This document shows positions 4,444 to 41,585 of a DNA stretch of 42,976 nt, one piece after another (the stretch's first letter is position 1; each line of letters opens with the position of its first letter). Position numbers and translations under genes: made by a program. The stretch is from a virus (taxonomy: Duplodnaviria > Caudoviricetes), in IMG/VR virus record IMGVR_UViG_3300017747_001641, positions 1-42,976 of that record; one strand, given 5' to 3'. The notes under the pieces are model-generated. The model was not told the origin of the DNA. It did no database searches and saw only the letters and a program-made list of their open reading frames with translations.

Positions 4444-7400
4444 ATGCCAATAGCCAGATTTCAGATGCCGGATGGCCGCATAGGCCGATTTGAAGTACCT
4501 GATGGGCTGTCTGACTCAGAAGTATCCAGTTTAATCAATCAGTCTCTGGGGGAAACCCAAACCCCAGAAATGCAACCAATCCCCAACGAGCCGGGGTTCT
4601 TCCGTGCCTTAAAGACCGGTGCTACTTCAACTGCGCAGTCGCTGTTCCCGGCTGCCAAGCTCATGGCATCTCCCGAGGACGAGGCGGCTGCGGAGCAGCT
4701 ACGCCAAGTAGGTCAGACCGCACAAGACGCTTATCGCCGCACGGAGTTCAGTGAGATTGGTGAGCTGGCCAAGTCCGGAGACATCGGCGGTGCGCTGGGT
4801 GCAACATGGAGCAAGTTCAAAGAGCTGGCTGGTGAGTCCATCGGGTTTCAAGCACCCGCTGCCGCTGCAGGTCTGGCAGCGAGGGTTGGTGTAGGCGCGG
4901 CGGCTGCGGCGGCTGGTGTGGCTGCGGCTCCTGCAGCAGCTATTGGTGTGGGTGCGTATGGCTTGACACTGCTGGGTCAATATGTGGCGAGCAACCTCGG
5001 TCGGCAGGTCGAGGAGAATAAAGGCAAGCCGGTTGAACGGCTCCCCGCCACCATTGCGGGTTCTGGGCAGGCTGCGCTTGATCTGCTTGGCGCGAAGTAC
5101 TTGGGGCTGGGTAAGCTGCTGGGTCTCGAGGGCAAAGCGGCGGCGGAGCAGACTGTTGAGCAGTTGGTCAAAGCCGCTCAGAAACCCACACGGGGTCAGC
5201 TGGCGAAAACAGCGGCGGTTGGCGGTGCCAAGGGTATTGGCTTTGAAGTCCCGCAGGAGGTGGCACAGTCGGTTCTGGAGCGCTGGCAGGCTGGGTTGCC
5301 AACCAATCCATTTGATGATCCCGGTGCCGCGAAAGAATACGCCGAGGCTGCAGCCGGTGCGCTGCTGCTGGGTGGTCCGCTGGGTGCCATTGGTCGCGTT
5401 GGAGAAAAACGCCGTGAGCGTGGCGAAGCCATGACTGAGCTTCAGCGCCGTGGGGAAATAGAAGTTCAGCAAGAGCAAGAAGCGCTGGGGCCTACGGCTG
5501 TGGCCCCAACAACCGGCGAGTATACCGGGATCAAGACGGCCACCGCCGAGGAAGGGCCCGGACGGGAACAATTTCAAGACGAGCTCGATGCGGAGCGCCA
5601 ACGGTATGAGGAAGACCTTCGCATAACTAAAGAACGCTTTGACGCGGCTAGACCGAACAGCAAGGCATATAAAGAGCTGAAGGCAGAGCTTGAGAAACTT
5701 GGCACGGACTATCCAAAACCCGACCGCGAGATGGCCAAGCGGTTGAAGGTGTTTGAGCAGGCGCAGCCTGACGAGCAAGGACTGTTTCGCCCGGAACGAG
5801 TTGCGCCCGCATACCCTGCAGCGCCGGATGTTCCGCAACCCATTGGCAATGTGATAACCCCCGGCGCACTCACCAGTCTGAATGTCCGCGACACGCTGAA
5901 ATACAAAGGTCGTCCGATGAAGGACGTCCTGCTTGGGCTTAACCTGAACCGGGCGGATGATCTCGTTATTTTTGACCGCGTTATGGAAGACGCGGGTAAT
6001 CGAAATGTGAAGCTCAATTACGCGTTGGCCGGAGAATTGAGCGATCGTGCATTGTCTGCGCGACTGCAGGAACGTACCAAATTTGCTACCCCGACAGTAA
6101 TCGGTGAGCAGCCGCAACTTACGGGCACCCTGACTCCAGAACAGCAGGCATTCTTTGAGCAGACAAGCGCGGCAGGTCAACAGCCCGGGCTTGAGGTTCA
6201 ACGTGCTCAGGAGCGCCAGCCGCAAGAGGGCCCGTCACGGATTATTGTCCCCGAGGAACGTCAGCCGCAGGTCGGTGGGTTGCCAATACTTCGCCCGACA
6301 ACCAAACCTACGCCAAAAGCCCCGTCCCCTACAGAATCATGGGCTCCAACACTGGTGACGGACCAGACACTGGATCAATTCGGCATATCGAAAGACGAGA
6401 AGAAAAAGCCGGTGGCTGAACTTCGCAAGGCATTGTTTGGTGGCCTTGACCTTAACAACCCGGTGGACGCTGCGGTAGTGCGTGATGCTCTGCGCGAATA
6501 CCGGAGTCACGCGCTTACGCCTAAAGACCAGAAACAAAAGGCAGATGACGCGATACGCAGCTTGGGTCTGGCTGGGCAGCAGTCCCTCGATTTATTCCCT
6601 CGCCCCGAAAAGGAGACCCCTCGTGCTGATAGATCAGAAACTACTGGAACAGGCGTGGTGGCACCTGTATCACAACGAGCCGACCGAGGACGAGAGGTTG
6701 CTGGAGCTGGAGCTGCCCCTGTGGTTGGAGATCAAGGACGAACTGCTCAAACTACTGGTCGAGCGGAGTCACAGCAGGCTGCATTAACCGATGAGCGTTT
6801 TGATTTTATTACTAAGTCCGCCGAAAAAGATAACTTATCATGGCCCGTTAAAGACAGAGCGCGGTTTCATATGTTTAATCCAAACGGATTGGTTGCGGCC
6901 AAGCGTGCTATGGATGAACAGGTAACCCGTTTGGTCGATGAAGGTCTTGCAAAGTCTGGGGCAATTCTTGCGTATGGGTCGGGCAATGATTATAGCGTTA
7001 ACGATTTTTATAAAGACAAGCGCGTAACGCGTAGGTCTTTAGCCGAAAGCTTAGAGAGAATTCAAAAGGATATCGACACCGCAAGAAAATATGTTGAAAA
7101 AACCAGAGGTAGCACCATTGAGGGTGAGTACTCCGTAGTAGAAGAGACCGCGATGTTGATGCTGGAACGCGCAGAGGAGAAGTTAAGCGCGGCTGAAACA
7201 GCACGGTTGGAGAAGCACTATGGCGCACGCAAGGATACCCCGGAGTATCAGAGCAGGCTCCGCGAAGACATCGTTTCGTTTATAAACAACGGCGCGGCGT
7301 CCATTGCTGCGGCCATACGAAGCATCATCAGAAAGTTGGCAGTTGTCGTGCTGTCTGTTGGTGTTGTGTTCAATCAGGGCAGCTTCCTGAGCGACGCAAA

Positions 7401-10400
7401 AGCCATTCCGATGCCGGTCCCGCAGACCAAGGCTCAAGTAATACAGATCATTGAAAAGTCGAAAGCAAATTTTGGCCAAGTCAAACCTTCGGCTACCGTT
7501 GCAACGGTTGCGGATTGGGTCATTGGTGACCGCAACAATCAAGGCAAACCATTTATCGTTGTTGATAAGCCGACGGCTATGGCCTACGCATTCGATGGCG
7601 ACGGTAAGCTGGAAGCTGTAACACCAGTGCTGCTTGGTAAAAATGCCACTGCGGATGTGTTGCCGGAGTCAGCCATAAGCAAGACAGTAGAGCAGACTAC
7701 CGAATCCGAGAAGGTCACGCCTGCTGGTCGCTTCGATGCGACTGTCGAGAAGAGCAGTAGCTATGGTACGTCTCTGCGGTTTATGGAGCTGCCGAATGCG
7801 AACTTGGCAATGCACCAGACTTACTTGGGCACACCCGCCGAGCGCCGCCAGCAGCGACTCGATACTCCGACGCCCGCTGACAACTACGTGTCGTATGGGT
7901 GCATAAACGTCGGTGCTGAGTTCTACAATAAGCACATCCTGAAGCCGTTCTCCGGGGGCGGTGTGATGTACATCACACCCATGACCCAGAACCTTAACGA
8001 CACATTCAGGGAACTTGCCACTTACAGCCCAACTTACACGGTTGTAACTGAAACCGTCAACAACCCGCAAAGCGCATCCGATGTAGCCGCGCATTCCACG
8101 CAGGGTGCCCCTCGGGAGCGGCAGGGACGGAACCAACCCAAGGCGACCAAAGTCCGGCGTCCAGAGCCCCCGTCCGGGCTCCCGCTGGAAGAAAAACCAG
8201 TTGGACCTAAGCTAAACAATACGGCTGCGACGGCGGTTCAAGCTGGGGATTTGCGCGGTGCGTTGCGAGAAATTTCCGAGTCCGGCTCCACGCCGATGAT
8301 GCGCATGGTGGCTAAGAAGCTGCTGGGCTATGTTGGTCAAACCAAGATCAAGATTGGTGATGTGCCGGGCTCAGGGCAGTACGATCCGGATACGGACACC
8401 ATTACGATCAACCCAAATGCGCTGCACGAACACACTGTTCTGCATGAGATGGTTCATGCGGCGATATCCCACGTATTACGCAACCGTTTCCACCCGCTGA
8501 CCCGGGAGCTAGGTAGTCTTTATCGTAAGCTACTGCCCCGAATCCAGAACACCTACGGTGCGACAAGCCTGCAGGAGTTCGCGGCAGAGGCGCAGTCCAA
8601 CCCCGAGTTCCGTGCCATGCTGCACAACATTCGCGCCCCGCAAGGTGCGTTAAAAACAGCGTGGGACCACATCGTTGACGCCGTTCGCAAATTCCTACGG
8701 CTCTCTCCCCGGCAGTCGCAGACCGCGCTTGACAAAATCGACAAGGTAATCGACGACCTGCTGACAACTGCTAAGGTTGAACCGAAGACCCCGGGCGATA
8801 TCCTGTTCCTCAACGCTAACGTATCTGGCTCCTCCGCTGCCTACCAGCAGCTGCTTAACAGCATGGGGCAACAGACGCGGATGCTACCGGAGTTTACGCA
8901 AGGGTGGTTTGATTCGTTGGGTAAGCTGAACCGGACACTGGTGGGTGCCATCACCAAGACGTTGGATATGAACCATCTGGCGGAGATTTACGGCGATCGG
9001 GTGCCTGCAATTCGCGGCATCATAAACCTGCTTAACGAACGCCGTGGCTACGAGAACACACAGTTTGACCGTGCAGGCAAGAACTCCCGAATGCTCAAGC
9101 GCATGTATGACAAATACAAGACGTCTCTCAAGAAAGAATGGGAGCTGTTTACTGATGTCATATTTGATTCAACACGCACGCTGTATGACCCGTCGGCACC
9201 GTCGGAGAGCGGCAACCCCGGAGCAGAGGCAGGCCCTGATATCCAAAATAAATGGAATCGTCTGCCAAAAGATTTGCAGGACGCCTACCGTGACATTAAG
9301 GACCACTACACGGCGATGTACAAGGACTACATGGCGGCGCTGGATAAAGACCTCATCGCACTGCCGGAGAACGAGCGCGCGAACATTCGCGCCGCCATCG
9401 AGAACAAGATCAAGCCTTACTTCCCGCTGATGCGGTTTGGTGACTACTGGTTAGAGTTCGAGCGCAACGGTGAGCGGTATGTCACGGCGTTTGAGACTCC
9501 CGAAGAGCGGCAGCGGGCTATCACCGCGCTCAAGCTGGACAGGAAATCTCCGGGGTTCAAGATATACAAGAAGATCGAGGAAGTGCTGTCGCGCCCGCCG
9601 TCAGATCCGATGATCCAGCGCACATTGAAGGCACTGACGGATAACGGCGTGGACAAGGAGACTAAAGACCGGGTGCACCGTGCGCTGCTGCAGCTCAACC
9701 CGCAGCAATCTGTCATCTTTAATATGCTGAAGCGGGAAGGCTACGAGGGTTTCTCTAGAGACCTTATCCGGGCTTACACGACCATGACCCCGAGGCTGAT
9801 TTCGCAGACTGCTTCGCGCATGTATAACCGCAGCATCGAAGAGACCGCAGGCTACGCCCGGGTGCAGCTGGAAGAGATATCGAACGCAGCCGATGAGGGC
9901 TACGATGCACTGGCTGACGCTGTGGCAGAGGAGTTGTCAGGTAAGCAGGGGTCGCGGCTAGATGTCATCATGAACCCCAAGCCTAACAAGCTGGCGTCTA
10001 CGATGAACTGGTTGACCTATGGATACTTCATGGGTGCCAACGTGTCCACGGCGCTTATCAACATGACACAGACGCCGATGGTGGCCTACCCGATAATGGC
10101 CAGCAAGTTTGGCATCACCGACACCACCAAGGCGCTGATGGACGCATACAAGTTCTACGGGTCACACGCTTTCAAGAATCCGATAGAGAAGTTCAAGACG
10201 CACGGCTATCTGTCGCCGCTGAACACACTACCAAAAGGTCATCCGCTGGCCAATCTGTACAGCGAACTACAGCGGCGCGGTCAGATCAATATCTCCATCA
10301 CGCAGGAGCTGCTGGACCTGCAGGCGCAACCCACCGACAAAGTCAGTAAGACCAAGCAGCGAGTCGGTGTGGCGATGTCGTTTGCACACCAGATGACGGA

Positions 10401-11541
10401 GATGAGCAACCGGGAAATAACGGCGGTCGCCGCATACAATCTGGCGAAACAAGCGAAGATGTCCGAGGCTCAAGCTATCGACTATGCCATTGATGTAGTC
10501 ACCAAGTCGCATGGCAGTGGCATGATGGATACGGCAGGCCCAATATTCCAGCACCCGGTTGGTCGCGTAGTGTTGATGTTCAAACGTTTCGCGCAGCTGA
10601 TGGTATTCCGTGCCGCACGCACGGCGTATGTGGCAATTAAGGGGGATGCAAGTCTGTCGCCGCAGGAACAAGCCGAAGCGATGGCCATGGCCAAGAAGCA
10701 GCTGCTCGGTATCTACATCATGGCGTTTGCGTTCGCCGGAGCGCAGGGGCTCCCGCTGTATGGGTTGGTGGAGATGCTGTACAACATCTTCCAGTCGGCG
10801 TTCGGTGACGACATGGAGTACGAAGACTTCACCAACATGGTACGCGAAGCGCTGGGTGAGATGGCGTTCAAGGGCCCGGTCAACTACACAACCGGTCGGG
10901 ATATCGCACAACGCACCGGCTTTGGTGACATGCTCATTCGGGACGATTCGCGCAGCATGGCAGAGCTTGGGCCCTTTATGTACTACTTCCAACAGTTCTT
11001 TGGTGGGGCGTTCCTGAGCGCAGCGAACAACCTGAATCGCGGCTTCGGCATGATCAATGACGGGTATGTGTATCGGGGTCTGGAGACAATGTCCCCTGCG
11101 GTTATCCGTAATGCAATGAAGGGCGCGAGGTTCTGGACCGAGGGTGCAACAACCATCAAGGGAGACCCCATCACCGATGACTTAGGGGTGCATGATGCGC
11201 TGTTCCAGATGAGCGGTTTCGCCCCGACCAAGCTGACTGAGATTTACGAAAAGCGCGGCTTCATGAAGGAGTATGAGACGTTCATCAAGGACAAGCGTCG
11301 GGGGCTGCTGGATCAGTATGAGATTGCCCGAGATTCCGGGGACTCGGAAGTAATGGAGGCGGTGCGGGACAAGATTAGCCGGTTTAACGCGGCCTACCCG
11401 GCAGTCAGGATCACCCAAGACACCATCAGGCAGTCAATCCGTGGGCGGGAACAGCGCGAACGCGATGCCATCTACGGCGTGCAGATCGACAAGCGACTGC
11501 GCAACCAGATTAAAGAGGCTGTAGCGGGTGGGGTAGAGTAA
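4444..11541 (+). CDS. Giant polyvalent internal virion protein (L,D-transpeptidase-like domain, HExxH zincin, PLxRFG domain)
   Basis: 2365 aa. KPFIVVDK..TPAGRF..MH..SYGCINV at ~7540-7980; HEMVH at 8443-8457 with downstream EFAAE; YFPLMRFGDY at ~9418-9447. Confidence 0.85.
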   Translation: MPIARFQMPDGRIGRFEVPDGLSDSEVSSLINQSLGETQTPEMQPIPNEPGFFRALKTGATSTAQSLFPAAKLMASPEDEAAAEQLRQVGQTAQDAYRRTEFSEIGELAKSGDIGGALGATWSKFKELAGESIGFQAPAAAAGLAARVGVGAAAAAAGVAAAPAAAIGVGAYGLTLLGQYVASNLGRQVEENKGKPVERLPATIAGSGQAALDLLGAKYLGLGKLLGLEGKAAAEQTVEQLVKAAQKPTRGQLAKTAAVGGAKGIGFEVPQEVAQSVLERWQAGLPTNPFDDPGAAKEYAEAAAGALLLGGPLGAIGRVGEKRRERGEAMTELQRRGEIEVQQEQEALGPTAVAPTTGEYTGIKTATAEEGPGREQFQDELDAERQRYEEDLRITKERFDAARPNSKAYKELKAELEKLGTDYPKPDREMAKRLKVFEQAQPDEQGLFRPERVAPAYPAAPDVPQPIGNVITPGALTSLNVRDTLKYKGRPMKDVLLGLNLNRADDLVIFDRVMEDAGNRNVKLNYALAGELSDRALSARLQERTKFATPTVIGEQPQLTGTLTPEQQAFFEQTSAAGQQPGLEVQRAQERQPQEGPSRIIVPEERQPQVGGLPILRPTTKPTPKAPSPTESWAPTLVTDQTLDQFGISKDEKKKPVAELRKALFGGLDLNNPVDAAVVRDALREYRSHALTPKDQKQKADDAIRSLGLAGQQSLDLFPRPEKETPRADRSETTGTGVVAPVSQRADRGREVAGAGAAPVVGDQGRTAQTTGRAESQQAALTDERFDFITKSAEKDNLSWPVKDRARFHMFNPNGLVAAKRAMDEQVTRLVDEGLAKSGAILAYGSGNDYSVNDFYKDKRVTRRSLAESLERIQKDIDTARKYVEKTRGSTIEGEYSVVEETAMLMLERAEEKLSAAETARLEKHYGARKDTPEYQSRLREDIVSFINNGAASIAAAIRSIIRKLAVVVLSVGVVFNQGSFLSDAKAIPMPVPQTKAQVIQIIEKSKANFGQVKPSATVATVADWVIGDRNNQGKPFIVVDKPTAMAYAFDGDGKLEAVTPVLLGKNATADVLPESAISKTVEQTTESEKVTPAGRFDATVEKSSSYGTSLRFMELPNANLAMHQTYLGTPAERRQQRLDTPTPADNYVSYGCINVGAEFYNKHILKPFSGGGVMYITPMTQNLNDTFRELATYSPTYTVVTETVNNPQSASDVAAHSTQGAPRERQGRNQPKATKVRRPEPPSGLPLEEKPVGPKLNNTAATAVQAGDLRGALREISESGSTPMMRMVAKKLLGYVGQTKIKIGDVPGSGQYDPDTDTITINPNALHEHTVLHEMVHAAISHVLRNRFHPLTRELGSLYRKLLPRIQNTYGATSLQEFAAEAQSNPEFRAMLHNIRAPQGALKTAWDHIVDAVRKFLRLSPRQSQTALDKIDKVIDDLLTTAKVEPKTPGDILFLNANVSGSSAAYQQLLNSMGQQTRMLPEFTQGWFDSLGKLNRTLVGAITKTLDMNHLAEIYGDRVPAIRGIINLLNERRGYENTQFDRAGKNSRMLKRMYDKYKTSLKKEWELFTDVIFDSTRTLYDPSAPSESGNPGAEAGPDIQNKWNRLPKDLQDAYRDIKDHYTAMYKDYMAALDKDLIALPENERANIRAAIENKIKPYFPLMRFGDYWLEFERNGERYVTAFETPEERQRAITALKLDRKSPGFKIYKKIEEVLSRPPSDPMIQRTLKALTDNGVDKETKDRVHRALLQLNPQQSVIFNMLKREGYEGFSRDLIRAYTTMTPRLISQTASRMYNRSIEETAGYARVQLEEISNAADEGYDALADAVAEELSGKQGSRLDVIMNPKPNKLASTMNWLTYGYFMGANVSTALINMTQTPMVAYPIMASKFGITDTTKALMDAYKFYGSHAFKNPIEKFKTHGYLSPLNTLPKGHPLANLYSELQRRGQINISITQELLDLQAQPTDKVSKTKQRVGVAMSFAHQMTEMSNREITAVAAYNLAKQAKMSEAQAIDYAIDVVTKSHGSGMMDTAGPIFQHPVGRVVLMFKRFAQLMVFRAARTAYVAIKGDASLSPQEQAEAMAMAKKQLLGIYIMAFAFAGAQGLPLYGLVEMLYNIFQSAFGDDMEYEDFTNMVREALGEMAFKGPVNYTTGRDIAQRTGFGDMLIRDDSRSMAELGPFMYYFQQFFGGAFLSAANNLNRGFGMINDGYVYRGLETMSPAVIRNAMKGARFWTEGATTIKGDPITDDLGVHDALFQMSGFAPTKLTEIYEKRGFMKEYETFIKDKRRGLLDQYEIARDSGDSEVMEAVRDKISRFNAAYPAVRITQDTIRQSIRGREQRERDAIYGVQIDKRLRNQIKEAVAGGVE

Positions 11542-21234: not shown

Positions 21235-21606
21235 TCATTTAGATTTGCTGTACTTACGCGCTTTACGAGCTTTGGACATTTTGGTTTTGACTTTGGGGCT
21301 GCTCCAATACTTGCTGCGCTTGGTGTATTTGCGTTTTGTTTTGAGCTCGTCGAGGGAGCCCCAGTTTTCAAGCAGTTTAAGGAGGTCTCGGTCTTCGCGC
21401 TTGGGTTCTGGAGCGTTGGTGAATGTCCACTTGATAGGCTTGTGGGGAAGGGCCAGCTGCTCGGTAGATTTTGGGGGTTCGACCTTGTAAGGTGCCTCAT
21501 TACTACGCTCCTCTTTTGCTTTATCAGACATTTTAACCAGCGTGTACAAAACCCAAACAGCAACGGCGAAAGCAACAGCGACAGCAATGATTTTAATAAT
21601 TTCCAT
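21235..21606 (-). CDS. Membrane-anchored protein with a very basic C-terminus
   Basis: ATG 21606 with GGAGA RBS; N-terminal TM segment IIAVAVAFAVAVWVLYTLV; K/R-rich tail. Confidence 0.65.
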   Translation of the reverse strand: MEIIKIIAVAVAFAVAVWVLYTLVKMSDKAKEERSNEAPYKVEPPKSTEQLALPHKPIKWTFTNAPEPKREDRDLLKLLENWGSLDELKTKRKYTKRSKYWSSPKVKTKMSKARKARKYSKSK

Positions 21607-21608
21607 GG

Positions 21609-21815
21609 TTATCTCCAAATATACTCTTTAGGGTTAGTTACTTCTGTCTTATTACCACACACATCACACTTGGCGTTAGTCCACTTCGACTTCAACCAGC
21701 GATCAATCTTGCCACCCAACTTACCAGCACATGAAATACAGATAACCTCGTACTCCAGAGGCGGCTTCACCTCACGCGCTTCTTTCTCGAAAAACGACTT
21801 CATGAACATCTTCAT
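21609..21815 (-). CDS. Small Zn-finger protein
   Basis: CISC..CDVCG, 68 aa, in the operon. Confidence 0.6.
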   Translation of the reverse strand: MKMFMKSFFEKEAREVKPPLEYEVICISCAGKLGGKIDRWLKSKWTNAKCDVCGNKTEVTNPKEYIWR

Positions 21816-21883
21816 TTTCTATTTCCTTTTTTCTTTGGGCTTTTCGCTATTCGCGAATCAAGAATATCAAATATGTCGCTCAT
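21812..21883 (-). CDS. 23-aa micro-ORF (MSDIFDILDSRIAKSPKKKGNRK)
   Basis: Not in the ORF track; starts 3 nt after the upstream stop and ends in an ATGA overlap with the next start. Confidence 0.4.
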   Translation of the reverse strand: MSDIFDILDSRIAKSPKKKGNRK

Positions 21884-21886
21884 AAC

Positions 21887-22093
21887 TCACTCTCTGTAAA
21901 ATTTGAGCACGCGTTCTATAGCATCTATCGTCGCCTTTATTTCTGCGACATCTTCTTTTTTGTTGGTGCTAAATACAGCACACCGCCTTCCGTCTTTATG
22001 CTTCTGAAGGTCTGAACGCAGCAACTCCATTACGGAAACCAGCTCTTGTTGAACAATGCTAGATGCTGTGTCGTTGTCTATTTCTATTTTCAT
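21887..22093 (-). CDS. Hypothetical protein (68 aa)
   Basis: ATG 22093 with GGAGGT RBS and ATGA overlap. Confidence 0.65.
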   Translation of the reverse strand: MKIEIDNDTASSIVQQELVSVMELLRSDLQKHKDGRRCAVFSTNKKEDVAEIKATIDAIERVLKFYRE

Positions 22094-22320
22094 TTCCACC
22101 TCCAACACTTAATCACCCCGCCCTCGACGACATACACAGTCATCTCTCCCTCGGTCTGAGGCATCGGGCATACAGACAGCGCTACCTTTTGCGCTGCTGG
22201 CTCAACTTCATTGACCCGATACCCAACAGCCGCTGCAGCCGCGCCAACAAACAATCCCGCCACTGCTACTATCGCCATGCGCTTGACCATTACTGGCCCG
22301 TCGATGAAGTAGGGTTTCAT
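22090..22320 (-). CDS. Small exported/membrane protein
   Basis: Hydrophobic segment MAIVAVAGLFVGAAAAAVG; two Cys; ATGA overlaps on both sides. Confidence 0.6.
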   Translation of the reverse strand: MKPYFIDGPVMVKRMAIVAVAGLFVGAAAAAVGYRVNEVEPAAQKVALSVCPMPQTEGEMTVYVVEGGVIKCWRWK

Positions 22321-22778
22321 GCGGCGGCCCTCCTTTTCTCAACATGATTTTGTTCGTTCTGGATACTAACTTCCAACTGTTGAATTAGGCCGACAATATT
22401 TGAGTCCAATAAATACAGCTTCCGACTCCAGCGCTCTATTGTCAACCGGATGTCCCCCAACAATTGCGCTTTCAATTGCTCGTCATCTAAAACCGCTGCT
22501 GTCATACGATAGCCACCACCTGATACTTGGTCACTTTGTAACGACACAAATGCGCGGATTGACACATCAGGAGCGGTAGTAATTTGAACGCGACACTTTT
22601 GTATAAGGCCACGCGCCTGTTCCCGGCGATACTGTCGTGCCGCTTCTGTATCGTCCCATTCAAAGTGCTTATGCAATACACAACGCTTGTCTTTCGCTGC
22701 CTCTAAAACATCGTCTACAAGCAGCAGCCCCCCGTTTTTTGCCGCCATACGCTCTAAAAATTTACGTTCTTCATTCAT
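22317..22778 (-). CDS. Accessory protein directly downstream of the RAMP-associated repeat array (153 aa)
   Basis: ATG 22778 with AAGGAG RBS, ~20 nt after the last array motif; motif VLEAAKD..LHKHFEWDD.EAA..YR..QAR.LI. Confidence 0.8.
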   Translation of the reverse strand: MNEERKFLERMAAKNGGLLLVDDVLEAAKDKRCVLHKHFEWDDTEAARQYRREQARGLIQKCRVQITTAPDVSIRAFVSLQSDQVSGGGYRMTAAVLDDEQLKAQLLGDIRLTIERWSRKLYLLDSNIVGLIQQLEVSIQNEQNHVEKRRAAA

Positions 22779-22798
22779 TATCTTCTCCTTTGTAAATG

Positions 22799-23346
22799 CC
22801 TGCCGTGAGTTACCGTACCGAGCCATACCGCGCCCTACCGCGCCCAACCACTACATGCCAAACCTGCCGTGACGTACCCAACCGGACCAGACCGAGCCGC
22901 GCCAATCCCATCCTGCCGTGACTCACCGAACCGCGCCCAGCCTAGCCTCGCTAGACCATACCTGCCGTGCCGGAACATAACTCAACAAACCAAACCACGC
23001 CCGGCCCAGCCCAACCTGCCGTGACTTACCAAACCTGACTCAGCCTTGCCCATCCGGACCTGCCATACCTTGACAAACCGTAGCTCAACAGACCAGACCG
23101 CACGTTGCCTTGCCCCACCTTACCTGCTATGCCGTGACAAACCGTAACTCGACGCACCAAGCTATACCACGCCGCGCCTGACCTGCCGTGGCGCACCTTG
23201 CCTGACCAGTTCAAGCCTCGCCTCTCCAAACCTCACCTGCCGTGACTTACCCAACCGGGCCGGACCAAGCCTCGCCACTCCGGACCCCACCTGCCGTGAC
23301 GTACCCAACCGGGCCGGATCAGACCGGGCCTCTCCGGGCCTGCCGT
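22799..23346 (-). ncRNA. Array of 10 putative guide-RNA units with GGY-NN 5-nt periodicity, delimited by ACGGCAGG
   Basis: On +, 11 boundary motifs CCTGC(C/T)(G/A)T start at 22799, 22863, 22912, 22961, 23015, 23059, 23123, 23182, 23236, 23290, 23339. Unit lengths 64,49,49,54,44,64,59,54,54,49 are all 5n+4. Interiors parse as mostly RCC plus 2 variable nt. Confidence 0.85.
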
Positions 23347-23347
23347 A

Positions 23348-24025
23348 TTACTCAATACCAAACTGCTTTTTGATGTGCTCCCTCCTTTCGTCATCTACAA
23401 TTTCAAACGTACCAAAACCCATCCCTGCAGATGCTTTGCTATCCGGACGCCCCGCACCAATACCAACCTGCGCTCCGACCCTTGAGATCAGATTAAATAT
23501 GTCTTGAGTGCTGAATTGGTCTTGGTCGTATTTGACGCGCAACTTCGCAGCCCACTTTTTATACATGGGGCGCACGCGCACATCGACAACTCCGGTAGCA
23601 TTACGCGTATGCGCTGAGTATTGATTGCTTGCTCCGTAAATACGAATCAACGGTAGTGAGTCAACCGCGTCCCACCCATCTGCCTCAATGAAGCAAGACA
23701 GCTTAGCCAGTGTCATTTTGAACCCGACCAAGCGGCACGCACTGATCATCCCCGCACGAAACGCAGCGGCGTTCATACCCTCCCAACCTTCATCAGAACG
23801 ATACCGCGCTTCCTCTGTCTCCCTCTCATAGTCTCGGGCAGTGCGAGTTTTCTTGCTACCCGCGCTTTTGCCTTCCTGCATCTTGGCCATAAGTTCGGCC
23901 TTCTTGCTGAACCGTTCGATAACCAACGGTGCTGTGCCATTGAGAACTAATTCCACCGTGGCAAAACGCGGCGGGGTGATAACAACCGTTGACTCTTTAA
24001 TATGTTTTTCTGTTACTGCGTTCAT
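23348..24025 (-). CDS. Stand-alone RAMP-superfamily (Cas7/Csm3-like) RNA-binding protein
   Basis: N-terminal strand VELVLNGTAPLVI, helix GMNAAAFRAGMISA (compare IPGSSLKGALR), C-terminal Gly-rich loop VGIGAGRP..GMGFGTF; AAGGAG RBS; no other cas genes adjacent. Confidence 0.8.
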   Translation of the reverse strand: MNAVTEKHIKESTVVITPPRFATVELVLNGTAPLVIERFSKKAELMAKMQEGKSAGSKKTRTARDYERETEEARYRSDEGWEGMNAAAFRAGMISACRLVGFKMTLAKLSCFIEADGWDAVDSLPLIRIYGASNQYSAHTRNATGVVDVRVRPMYKKWAAKLRVKYDQDQFSTQDIFNLISRVGAQVGIGAGRPDSKASAGMGFGTFEIVDDERREHIKKQFGIE

Positions 24026-24216
24026 TTTACTTCTCCTTTTAGTTTTCCAGCTTGTCGTAACTCACGGTGCAGCATCGAATACACCTGCGCTACTTCTGGA
24101 CGGAGACCGGTGCGCAGCCCCCTGTCCTGCACGAAGTGTTCACTCCACTCTGCCGTCGGTATGCCAAAGTAGGCGTATAGCTGTTGCACATATTTTGGAA
24201 TCTCTAATGCTCCCAT
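24022..24216 (-). CDS. Hypothetical protein (64 aa), translationally coupled to the RAMP gene
   Basis: AAGGAG RBS; ATGA overlap with the RAMP start. Confidence 0.65.
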   Translation of the reverse strand: MGALEIPKYVQQLYAYFGIPTAEWSEHFVQDRGLRTGLRPEVAQVYSMLHRELRQAGKLKGEVK

Positions 24217-24352
24217 ACGATTCTCCTTAAAGTTAGAAAGTGCGCGGTGCCTGAATTACCTCCATTGATGAGCTGCCCCGAGGTCTGTCATTCAAGCTGG
24301 TTACCGCAGCCGCGCCTACGGTTGGAGCCGGGGCTGGTATTTGGTTTCAAAA

Positions 24353-24637
24353 CTAATCAAAAAATTTTGCTAGTGCCTCCAGACAGTGCTCGTTCACAAC
24401 AAGAGCACTACCACCAGCGTCTATGATGCGCATTAACTCACGTTGTTGTAGTGCAGTGGGCGTGTTATCACCAGCCTTGCACTCTATGGCTACGAATTGC
24501 CCCTTCCAGCACGCCAAGATGTCAGGTATTCCAGACCGGCCATACCCAGAGGCGACAGGAAAGCAATACCACGCCCCCGCTGCCTTCAGTATCTCGACTA
24601 CTTTCTTCTTGACCTTGGACTCTGGGGTGGTGGCCAT
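24353..24637 (-). CDS. VRR-NUC domain nuclease (Holliday-junction resolvase-like)
   Basis: PESKVK..SGIPDILAC..FVAIECKA..TALQ. Confidence 0.88.
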   Translation of the reverse strand: MATTPESKVKKKVVEILKAAGAWYCFPVASGYGRSGIPDILACWKGQFVAIECKAGDNTPTALQQRELMRIIDAGGSALVVNEHCLEALAKFFD

Positions 24638-25512
24638 TACGTTGCCTTTTGTTTTTTGGGCCTACCAAGTTTGGCGTGCGCAACATTGAGCGGCTTCGTG
24701 GTCAGCGGATACGGCTCTTCTGTCGGGGAACGGAGTCGGGTAATCGGATTGCCCTTCATGAATGCCTTGATTGCGGACTGAGAGAGCAAAAAATTCGCCC
24801 TAAATAACTGATTTAAATGGACGTTGCGGTTCGCCAAAAACAAATTACGAAGTGCCACCGCCGCCGATTCACTAGCGTCTTGCATCATGCCAGTCGATAC
24901 AACTTGGCAGAACCGTGCCAGCCTTTCCTTGTCGTCTGTGTGGTACCACGCCCTAGCAACCGCCGCCAAAATGCACTGGTTACGCAAACCCTTACCGCGA
25001 GGACCATGCGAGCACACCCACTTCAAAGCGTCTTTATGTTTATCAACAATAGCCAACAAAGAAGAATTGGACATTGCCGCGCTCGTGCGGTTACCAGACT
25101 CCAGTGCTCGTGCAGCTGCAGTCATTTCGTTGGTGATGTCCATGTTCAGCCCGCTTATACGAGCGTTGTCCACTAGGTTGCGACCGCCACCCGTGTCGAT
25201 GTTGAGGCCCGCCTCTCTTGTCAGTCCATGCAGTACAAAAAACCGTTGCGGGGTATCAGACTCAATGATCGCCCACAATCGGTGCTGCCCATCTGCAATG
25301 TCACCGTTCTCGTAAAACACAATGGGCACAATGCACTCTGTCCACTTACCCGCTCGCATATCGGAAGCGTATTTTTCTACCCAACCATCCCTAAGTTTTC
25401 GGTTGCTAGTATTTCTGTTTAGCCACGTATGGGCTTTGGTTGGAGTTATGGTCTCCAAAACAGGGGGATTTAATCTATAGCTTGGAACTTTTACAGTGGT
25501 TGCTTGTTTCAT
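24637..25512 (-). CDS. ParB/Srx-like N-terminal domain protein (DGQHR motif)
   Basis: ITP..A..WL..N..NR, YASDM..G.W, IADGQHRLWAI; AAGGAG RBS. Confidence 0.75.
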   Translation of the reverse strand: MKQATTVKVPSYRLNPPVLETITPTKAHTWLNRNTSNRKLRDGWVEKYASDMRAGKWTECIVPIVFYENGDIADGQHRLWAIIESDTPQRFFVLHGLTREAGLNIDTGGGRNLVDNARISGLNMDITNEMTAAARALESGNRTSAAMSNSSLLAIVDKHKDALKWVCSHGPRGKGLRNQCILAAVARAWYHTDDKERLARFCQVVSTGMMQDASESAAVALRNLFLANRNVHLNQLFRANFLLSQSAIKAFMKGNPITRLRSPTEEPYPLTTKPLNVAHAKLGRPKKQKAT

Positions 25513-25538
25513 GACTTCTCCTTAGTTATTTAGTTAAT

Positions 25539-25739
25539 TTACGCACTTCTTCCTTCCTTGATACCCTTCTCATACAACGCGTCGAGCTTCCACATAACCT
25601 GCCGCTTCAGCCCTTTGGCACGCAGGAACATTATTCCGTCCCCGCGCACCGTAACGATCAACTCCCGCGCACCAGCATCCTGCACAGCAATCGCTAGTTC
25701 ACGGACGATCTCTTTACCACCACTTAACTTTGTTGCCAT
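25539..25739 (-). CDS. Hypothetical protein (66 aa)
   Basis: ATG 25739 with GAGG RBS. Confidence 0.6.
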   Translation of the reverse strand: MATKLSGGKEIVRELAIAVQDAGARELIVTVRGDGIMFLRAKGLKRQVMWKLDALYEKGIKEGRSA

Positions 25740-25746
25740 GTTTTCC

Positions 25747-26628
25747 TCACCAGTCAAATTTACCCAGTATGTCCTGCACCCGCGCCTTGACGTCATTGCG
25801 CACACCTTCGCTTGTGCGGAGGTCCTTGATCGTAACCCCGGACAGGGCTTCTTCAAGATGCTTGCGTGCTGCTTCTAACGTCGGGTCATTCATTACATTC
25901 AAGCGAGTGAGTAAACTGCACAGCTCAACACCATTCTCCAGATGAGATTCGTGAAGCTGCCCCGCCTTGGTCTTATCGCCGCTTGCGGATGATTCAATCG
26001 CTTTCTGCTTCTTCTCCAACCTGTCAACCAAAGTCGTCAGGTATTCATGTAGTCTACTCCAAAGTTCTTTTGCTGTGGCTTCTTCTTTCTCACGATACAA
26101 CTTTTCATAGCTTTCGCGCAACTCCTGCTGCGTCGCAGCATCCGAATCAACCCGAAAGTCGCCAGACAAAGGCACCGGATGGAAAGCCGTGCGAACGCTG
26201 AACTTATGTTTAATCTTATCCTCGCTGGGATAGTCGTCACGGTTAAACAATGTGCCGATTTGGAATGCCGCAGCCGAGATGAGATTTGGGTAATACGTCA
26301 GAAAATCTTGCACCGCCGCATTGAACTCATTCTCCATTGTGGAAAGCTCTTGCTTATAGTGAAAGAAGTTTGCCATTGGCAGCAGCCGGGTGCCGGTATC
26401 TGACCACGGGAGGGTCTCGCGCAGATGCCAGTTCCGGATTTTCCCAGCGATTGAATTGACCCGCTCCAGTTTGTCCGTGCCAGCGAACAGGTTTTTGTGA
26501 TAGTTACCGGCTTTTGTGCGGGTGTTCTTGGCCGCGTCCACCTCGCCGCTGACCTTGCGATCCATCTTACGACCCGTCCATACAGAGATGTTCAGGTCAA
26601 CCAATACGCCGTTGTTAGTAATGCTCAT
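25747..26628 (-). CDS. DUF3150-like conserved phage protein
   Basis: VLVDLNISVWTGRKMD..TLPWSD.G.RLLP pattern; 293 aa; lies downstream of the MoxR/VWA pair. Confidence 0.6.
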   Translation of the reverse strand: MSITNNGVLVDLNISVWTGRKMDRKVSGEVDAAKNTRTKAGNYHKNLFAGTDKLERVNSIAGKIRNWHLRETLPWSDTGTRLLPMANFFHYKQELSTMENEFNAAVQDFLTYYPNLISAAAFQIGTLFNRDDYPSEDKIKHKFSVRTAFHPVPLSGDFRVDSDAATQQELRESYEKLYREKEEATAKELWSRLHEYLTTLVDRLEKKQKAIESSASGDKTKAGQLHESHLENGVELCSLLTRLNVMNDPTLEAARKHLEEALSGVTIKDLRTSEGVRNDVKARVQDILGKFDW

Positions 26629-33762: not shown

Positions 33763-33860
33763 TGGCGGATTGGTGGCGGATTGGTGGCGGATTGGTGGCG
33801 GATTGGTGGCGGATTGGTGGCGGATTGGTGGCGGATTGGTGGCGGATTGGTGGCGGATTG
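33763..33860. repeat. 11-bp tandem repeat (TGGCGGATTGG) x ~9
   Basis: 8 perfect copies plus a 10-nt partial copy. Confidence 0.95.
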
Positions 33861-33952: not shown

Positions 33953-34461
33953 TGTTCCATCGTAAAATCAATGAGTTAGCTTGGGGGCGGTTTTGGGGGG
34001 TTTTGGCGGAGTTAGGTAAGTGCTTGATTGTGCATGGAACATTGAAAATAAGAGAGTCCAAATGGTGTCCGTGTTCCAAATGTTCCAGCGTGTTCCAAGG
34101 GGTTGGAACACGTTATGTTAAATGAATTTGGTTGGTGAGCACTTACCCCTTGAGTTGCAAGTGTTTGTTTTTATTATATTATTATTATTAGATTAGAAAT
34201 ATTTAATAGTAGAGAAGAGAAGGGTATTAGAATGTTCCAACGAATCGAAAAATGAATGCCGCGCCAAAATTTTTTCTGAATGCTGCGGGGATTGCAGCTG
34301 CGGTTTGGGGTTCGGCGGCGCCTTTTTTATTTTTGCCAAACTGAAAAACCGTTGGAACATTTGGAACATTTGGAACATTCCAATAAATCAAGGACTTACG
34401 AGGATTTTTCTTGGAACATCGTTGGAACACTTGGAACATTCCAATAAATCAAGGACTTACG
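33953..34461. repeat. Iteron-like cluster (TGTTCCA/TGGAACA x13) around an AT-rich core; candidate replication origin
   Basis: 13 heptamer copies, mostly TGTTCCA on the left and TGGAACA on the right of the AT-rich 34165-34210 core; 31-bp direct repeat at 34370-34400 and 34431-34461. Confidence 0.7.
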
Positions 34462-35660: not shown

Positions 35661-35864
35661 GTTAGGGACTCCTAACCTCCTGCTAGTTTTTGGAACGATC
35701 GTGCCAAAATTGAGAACGCTTCTTGTTTGTGACGGTGTGACGGTTGTGATGGTGGTTCCGTATCTTTTTTGTATAAACAAATAAAAGGGCCCTAGAAGAA
35801 AAATAACGACCTACCGTCACAACCGTCACACCGTCACACATCCCCCGGTTAGGGACTCCTAACC
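35661..35864. repeat. Symmetric element: 26-bp inverted repeat of TGTGACGG iterons around an AT-rich spacer, flanked by a duplicated palindrome
   Basis: 35728-35753 versus 35813-35838 are 25/26 complementary; GTTAGGGACTCCTAACC at 35661-35677 and 35848-35864. Confidence 0.85.
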
Positions 35865-40994: not shown

Positions 40995-41188
40995 TGGACG
41001 GCATTGAACTGCTCCTCAAGCGTAACGACGAGGAGCGCAAAGCGTTAATCGAAGTCATCGTTTCAGGCGGTGTGAGTGACTTTGAGAATTACAAACACAT
41101 TTGCGGGGTAATTCGGGGTCTCGACCTTGCGGATGAACATATTAGAGACCTTGCAAAAAGGATGAAAGACGATGACGACAACGACTGA
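40994..41188 (+). CDS. Small head-module protein (64 aa)
   Basis: TAATG overlap with the portal gene; motif DFENYK..CG.IRGL. Confidence 0.7.
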   Translation: MDGIELLLKRNDEERKALIEVIVSGGVSDFENYKHICGVIRGLDLADEHIRDLAKRMKDDDDND

Positions 41189-41585
41189 GCAGGTGCCCCA
41201 AACCGCACTTGAACAGAAGTGGGCCGCAGATAGCGCAGAAGCAGAACGTAAGGCTAAGCAGTTGCCTGACCCGCAGGGATACCGAATCCTGTGCGCAATA
41301 CCGGAGTTCGAGAATAAGTACGACAGCGGCATTATCAAGGCGGATATCACCTTGCAGCACGAGGAGATTCTGACCACGGTGTTGTTCGTCGTGAAACTCG
41401 GTCCGGATGCGTACAAAGACCCGGTGAAGTTCCCGACAGGACCGTGGTGTAAAGAGGGTGATTTTGTGATTGTCCGCTCCAACAGCGGCACCCGTCTGGA
41501 TATCCATGGCAAAGAGTTCCGCATCATCAACGACGATACGGTCGAAGCGGTGGTCGAAGACCCCCGTGGAATCCGTCGCAAATAA
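41172..41585 (+). CDS. groES: GroES-like co-chaperonin
   Basis: LPDPQGYRIL, SGII, VVKLGPDAY, WCKEGDFV, G..FRIINDD.V.AVV. Confidence 0.88.
   Translation: MTTTTEQVPQTALEQKWAADSAEAERKAKQLPDPQGYRILCAIPEFENKYDSGIIKADITLQHEEILTTVLFVVKLGPDAYKDPVKFPTGPWCKEGDFVIVRSNSGTRLDIHGKEFRIINDDTVEAVVEDPRGIRRK

Follow-up and report, generated by a model that had tools for sequence, protein, structure and literature searches.

The repeat tract at positions 22801–23340 (minus strand) of the window, the 42,976-nucleotide stretch of phage DNA analysed here (IMG/VR record IMGVR_UViG_3300017747_001641), very probably represents the guides of a phage locus with the order vipr-array-vap, likely working as a VIPR silencer. 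VIPR, a system of DNA silencing related to CRISPR, was reported in preprints from 2026 (bioRxiv 10.64898/2026.04.26.720920), and the Results and the Fig. S18 legend of that source already name "staggered" vrRNA arrays with 1-nt overlaps. Both the system and the layout having been published, the locus is not a new class; it is a VIPR system with the staggered layout, and not one of type II. I also strongly infer that the array is functional. For staggered arrays, the available text of the preprint states neither a boundary motif nor a type number and reports no targets or RNA data, and its figures and data may show the motif and type. No other paper on staggered vrRNAs was among the literature results listed; a study that recovered VIPR arrays by their 5-nt periodicity (10.64898/2026.10.21.760802) does not use the word "staggered" in its accessible part. 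The locus described here adds a defined boundary motif, GCA|GG, present in N+1 copies around N guides, as well as two predicted target families and skip-code evidence for the tail-less class.

The vipr-array-vap locus and its surroundings

The array is preceded by vipr (23348..24025, minus strand), encoding a 225-aa stand-alone RAMP protein with a Cas7/Csm3-like fold and homology to the Vipr of Escherichia phage SUSP1, the type II system of which (Vipr, Vap1; PDB 36pp) is the closest point of comparison. Its sole sequence match in the PDB is SUSP1 Vipr, 36pp_D (E 6.6e-4; profile E 9.3e-4), and the family profile aligns with SUSP1 Vipr over 167 columns (hhalign 93.6%, E 2.2e-7); Pfam and NCBIfam gave no match. 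Relatives of the protein number 5847 among 6063 candidates, with the nearest isolate homolog in Azohydromonas aeria, at 72%. A structure model (pLDDT 78.8) has Csm3/Cmr/Cas7 RAMPs as its top folds (Z 9.8, rmsd 3.1, 146 residues), and 36pp is not among the matches listed in the VIA-align fold comparison. SUSP1 residues R138 and R179 align with the invariant R152 and R193. In contrast, D177 and W178, which read the G bases of the guide according to the available text of the SUSP1 preprints, align with Ala191 and Gly192 in the window protein.

The vap position is occupied by a gene for a 153-aa accessory protein (22317..22778, minus strand; phrog_15946, of unknown function) with a conserved LH..FeWDD motif. 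The protein has no match in Pfam, NCBIfam, the PDB, a named Atlas cluster or named phages. A profile of 79 homologs compared with SUSP1 Vap1 (agp038) gave 0.15% in hhalign, and an E of 0.034 in hmmsearch for two sequences only, so that homology to Vap1 is not detectable by profile comparison. The gene order differs, as the array lies between vipr and vap in the window, unlike in the SUSP1 type II locus. The likeness to the published staggered-array VIPR is closer: both have vipr with one accessory gene and GGY/NN tracts, and according to the figure legend each guide begins where the previous one ends, the 1-nt overlap corresponding to the −1 slip of the window. The published typical range is 9–16 repeats, against 8–12 variable dinucleotides (NN) in the window units.

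With Class 1 CRISPR-Cas systems (Cas7/Csm3 filaments, Cas6-cut arrays) the locus shares the RAMP fold and the arrangement of N guides with N+1 constant motifs. Class 1 systems differ from the window in having a repeat-spacer array, contiguous pairing and cas genes; no cas gene was found in Pfam among the 27 window ORFs scanned, and no Cas family in NCBIfam among five neighbours and targets.

The window virus encodes a terminase, a portal, DNA polymerase A, a helicase and a PD-(D/E)XK protein, and the window is probably a partial genome, as completeness reaches 98% in a 61-kb relative. Other features of the window are a GroES-like gene (41172–41585, plus strand) and a protein of 2365 aa (4444–11541, plus strand), DarB-like in its C-terminal part. 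Near the switch in gene direction and GC skew lie 8.9 perfect tandem copies of an 11-bp repeat (33763–33860), clustered TTGGAACA repeats (34050–34440) and facing TGTGACGG/CCGTCACA repeats (35728–35839), which may be the iterons of an origin or mark the end region of a genome.

Array grammar and the junction motif

The array consists of ten units on the minus strand, with lengths from unit 1 to unit 10 (23340 to 22801) of 49, 54, 54, 59, 64, 44, 54, 49, 49 and 64 nt, all of the form 5n+4. An earlier note on this DNA, made from its letters alone, had described this organization, and was right in nearly every detail, although it drew no connection to VIPR. The ten units of 44–64 nt were all reproduced, the number of variable dinucleotides (left to right on the plus strand, the last omitted) is 11, 8, 8, 9, 7, 11, 10, 9, 9 and 8 as given there, and no break of phase was found inside any of the ten units. 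Unit ends are also as claimed, namely ACGGCA in eight units, ATGGCA in one and ATAGCA in one. The triplet description needed completion: GGY with variants is correct, but GGY accounts for only 80 of the 110 triplets, and GAA, GCC, CGT, GCT, AGT, GTA and CTC, one each, join the variants then listed. The junction was said always to precede GGY, which holds everywhere except between units 8 and 9, where GGA follows.

Per pentamer position, the entropy in the window is 0.33, 0.88, 1.31, 1.98 and 1.93 bits. The array has a register score of 148.8; 300 resamples from a first-order Markov model reach at most 19.9, and the remainder of the window, where no second run of at least four GGYNN occurs, reaches 10.1. 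Unit 1 has its 5′ end fixed by the leading GCA|GG junction (23341..23347, minus strand), 7 nt past the stop codon of vipr, and unit 10 its 3′ end by the trailing GCA|GGC junction (22796..22806, minus strand), after which come an A/T-rich spacer and the accessory gene's ribosome-binding site. Eleven junction motifs thus bracket the ten units.

The units abut directly, and no intervening sequence leaves space for a tail or a ribozyme. The structured invariant 3′ tail that follows the repeat tracts in type II VIPR, where SUSP1 guides are separate, is accordingly absent; so is a hammerhead ribozyme between guides, as known from the ribozyme-interspersed examples in VIPR types I and V, and a comparison of 21500–26000 with Rfam gave nothing at E≤1. 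No internal promoter or terminator was found within the array, and its RNA folds no better than shuffled sequences (z +1.49).

I then examined 93 loci (92 fetched, plus the window), carrying 78 distinct arrays. Arrays of at least 20 triplets, with the layout and slip seen in the window, are present in 87 of the 93, the remaining six being interrupted by contig ends, and the 153-aa accessory gene lies downstream of the array in most loci. A parser penalizing steps of 3, 4, 6 and 7 equally returned 7399 steps of 5 and 779 others in the distinct arrays, 768 of which are steps of 4, that is −1 breaks; this bears out the selection on register proposed in the earlier note. The same is true of the entropy modulo 5 suggested there: across 594 distinct internal units the five positions give 0.56, 0.64, 1.47, 1.92 and 1.97 bits, hence the NN positions are not conserved like GGY. 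In more distant loci (46–72% identity), 23 of 29 have arrays, and 144 of 167 breaks are −1, with 123 of these 144 reading GCA|GG (one locus, L168, parses noisily). Eight of the more distant loci (L161, L171, L174, L176, L181, L182, L183 and L185) have the order vipr-vap-array and keep the GCA|GG junction. Six loci (L029, L043, L067, L071, L072 and L076) have an additional reading frame of ~90 codons between vipr and the array.

That the tract is a functionless, decaying microsatellite or a product of slippage is hardly credible. The last three to four pentamers are common to units 1 (23292–23340), 2 (23238–23291) and 9 (22865–22913), and copying between units therefore does occur, as such an origin would have it; from the sequences, this suggests that new guides may arise via recombination between units. 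However, the phase and the junction are kept across loci, down to 46% Vipr identity, the NN positions are near maximal entropy, and the target matches described below are codon-phased. No CRISPR-like polarity was seen in the sharing of units, the shared-unit fraction being 0.39 for the first position, then 0.49, 0.48, and 0.47 for the last (60 arrays).

The junction bases G, C and A are found in 573, 566 and 563 of 574 units respectively, and the next GG in 572 of 574, whereas the dinucleotide before them is variable (AAGGCA in 178, ATGGCA in 79 and ACGGCA in 70 of 594 units). The signal is therefore GCA|GG. The earlier note had proposed ACGGCAGG, which is not borne out: its AC, found in just 70 of 594 units, is lineage-specific. 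Its broader idea, that a sequence signal marks the junction, stands, because the motif is present at both outer ends of the arrays: GCA|GG opens 71 of 78 arrays without any preceding pentamer, and closes 59 of 60 complete arrays.

These observations bear on how the guides are made. I consider it probable that the operon transcript is cut at or beside GCA|GG into ten tail-less guides of 44–64 nt. It is rather unlikely, in my estimation, that VIPR works here without cleavage, as one long RNA with ten binding modules in which the −1 slip only ends filaments, or with host RNases nibbling the junctions unspecifically. Such an arrangement would fit the Vipr model, in which no catalytic site was identified, and the small-RNA confirmation in bioRxiv 10.64898/2026.04.26.720920 is limited to two other layouts, ribozyme arrays and single-guide systems. 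It accounts poorly for GCA|GG at the two outer edges, the 5′ one of which has no register upstream of it, and for a GCA so nearly invariant, beyond the need of a mere phase break.

Predicted targets and the 1-nt-skip code

SUSP1 Vipr forms a filament, reads its target with a 1-nt-skip code and represses it, as described in the available text of two preprints (bioRxiv 10.64898/2026.04.26.720920,.720927); the homologous Vipr and the 1-nt skip on the wobble position are shared with the window. I applied this code to decode the units, keeping each NN and skipping one base, and scanned seven of the ten (1, 2, 3, 4, 5, 9 and 10) against IMG/VR with exact patterns, mostly of 16 specified bases. Units 6 (23017..23060, 44 nt, 8 NN), 7 (22963..23016, 54 nt, 10 NN) and 8 (22914..22962, 49 nt, 9 NN), all on the minus strand like the rest, are defined by the array parse. 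The chance level was set by units 5, 1 and 9, with 18, 27 and 21 matches.

Targets were accepted for two of the ten units, 2 and 10, and are likely ones, read from surrogate sequences in other phages and bacteria that need not share the host of this phage. Unit 2 (54 nt, 10 NN) is predicted to target an HGGxSTG-domain gene, antisense and with the wobble base skipped: 46 of its 49 matches fall in a C..HGGKSTGP motif, the match to one locus (L320) is 18/18, and NF041373 scores above cut-off in both targets tested. No paper using the term HGGxSTG came up in the literature searches. Unit 10 (22801..22864, 64 nt, 12 NN) is predicted to target a P4-like tyrosine integrase. It has ~190 IMG/VR matches, and 77 of 120 fetched are tyrosine integrases (best 21/24), matched antisense, in frame and with the wobble base skipped, at the motif VEMALAH[T/A]IK; the allele in L001/L002/L013 differs by a single NN, which corresponds to the Thr/Ala variation of this motif. 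Since the integrase loci were fetched with the pattern of unit 10 itself, its match is partly circular. In 401 genomes of the Azohydromonas family, the first ten NN have four matches with no more than one mismatch, of which three are integrases, and the reversed control has one; the Azohydromonas aeria genome has no match at ≤2 mismatches.

Unit 1 (49 nt, 9 NN) decodes to VVHGGRGSG, which is terminase Walker A-like. Four of its 27 exact 8-NN matches are in the terminase Walker A motif, none of which fit the held-out NN, and no further guides join it on this motif (4 matches at skip 1 vs 1–6), leaving a terminase guide as a weak candidate. For unit 3 (23184..23237, 54 nt, 10 NN), 11 scattered matches are at chance level and none was accepted. 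The same applies to unit 5 (23061..23124, 64 nt, 12 NN), with its best match, 22/24, in two copies of one protein. Unit 4 (23125..23183, 59 nt, 11 NN) has 87 matches, 64 of them in one family, which was rejected as only one of six held-out bases fits. I take this abundant family to be the N-terminus of a T4-like capsid protein. Unit 9 (49 nt, 9 NN) reaches 18/18 in 9 of 21 matches, split over three unrelated families, two of them with the skip off the wobble position, and no target was accepted. One ORF (in L470), presumably portal-like, is matched by unit 9 at 18/18, antisense and in frame; this single match was not accepted either. The best own-genome match of each of the ten units is within the range of 50 shuffles, in a record that is possibly a partial genome; this agrees with the absence of self-targeting that characterizes VIPR.

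Match counts can be inflated by a single abundant family, as seen with unit 4, and the code was therefore tested with independent guides, leaving out those of the window and the unit-10 allele. Searched against the 77 integrase loci (≥85%, ≥14 nt), 31 of 662 guides match at skip 1, compared to 4, 3 and 5 at skips 0, 2 and 3, and to a mean of 2.95 and a maximum of 7 in 20 shuffles. In 23 of the 31, the match is antisense in codon frame with the wobble base skipped; these 23, out of 25 in-frame matches, cluster on HGFRS.FRDW and KVEAAYRR. Eight of the in-frame matches are perfect. In the control, the unit-4 family (64 loci), no guide matches. Three bacterial regions gave 11, 12 and 11 guides at skip 1, vs 1–6. 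For HGGxSTG, the core of 111 nt is matched by 6 of 663 other guides (in shuffles, 0.27 on average and 2 at most); over the whole 1.2-kb loci, the 11 matching guides are not above shuffles (mean 4.65, max 12), and the excess is confined to the test centred on the motif. When 566 units were searched for targets among kin phages, no excess was seen in 0.44 Mb of related loci (3 vs 0–3) or in 0.72 Mb (15 vs 8–17; 39 at skip 3). As far as such matching can tell, the published 1-nt-skip code holds in the tail-less staggered class.

A held-out test used 21 antisense in-frame integrase guides, picked on their internal NN. The match rate is 0.76 at the first NN and 0.53–0.54 at the last two, and falls to 0.18 and 0.28 past the junction, near the 0.25 expected by chance. 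The target therefore ends where the unit ends, in agreement with the earlier proposal that the units are separate guides.

The strand of the matches bears on whether the guides read DNA or RNA. The antisense bias of the in-frame integrase guides would be accounted for if they paired with integrase mRNA and not with DNA, and the best folds of the Vipr model are type III Csm3/Cmr subunits; I nonetheless regard RNA-acting guides as improbable. Guides matching HGGxSTG occur in either orientation (of those in frame, 5 are sense and 2 antisense), unit 4 of L070 and unit 2 of the window read the same site from opposite strands, and published VIPR binds double-stranded DNA, on either strand (bioRxiv 10.64898/2026.04.26.720920). 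Two further sites are read from opposite strands, one by L040 unit 1, L061 unit 1 and L069 unit 7, decoding to an HGARSTGP variant, and one by L009/L045 unit 1 and L091 unit 10, for which no target was identified. The seven opposite-strand guide pairs in total are not above shuffles (mean 5, max 9).

Proposed mode of action and implications

In the proposed DNA-silencing mechanism, each unit would be coated by Vipr at one subunit per pentamer, with ~9–13 subunits per guide. Vipr would hide GGY and leave the NN pairs exposed for pairing with double-stranded DNA, every third target base being skipped, and by analogy with the SUSP1 work the filament would bind its target and repress transcription. 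The −1 register break may in addition keep a filament from running into the next unit.

The agent of cleavage is a matter for tentative suggestion. Vipr itself might cut the array at GCA|GG, combining the jobs of Cas6 and Cas7 in one small ancestral RAMP, with a large freshwater phage clade persistently attacking P4-like integrases at their catalytic motifs, along with the HGGxSTG genes of rival elements; I consider this possible but doubtful.

The guides of SUSP1 are directed against the recombinase of competing elements, and the available text of a further preprint describes a satellite immobilised by silencing of its recombinase (bioRxiv 10.64898/2026.10.15.759431). Integrase targeting here parallels that result, with a P4-like integrase family in place of the F5 satellite recombinase, the two being distinct as far as tested. 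By the same analogy, silencing of the integrase may keep a resident satellite or island from leaving the host chromosome while the phage infects the cell. With 4-nt junctions and no tails, such an array would be highly compact for a multiplex silencer, and which agent cuts the staggered array bears on the origin of crRNA processing.
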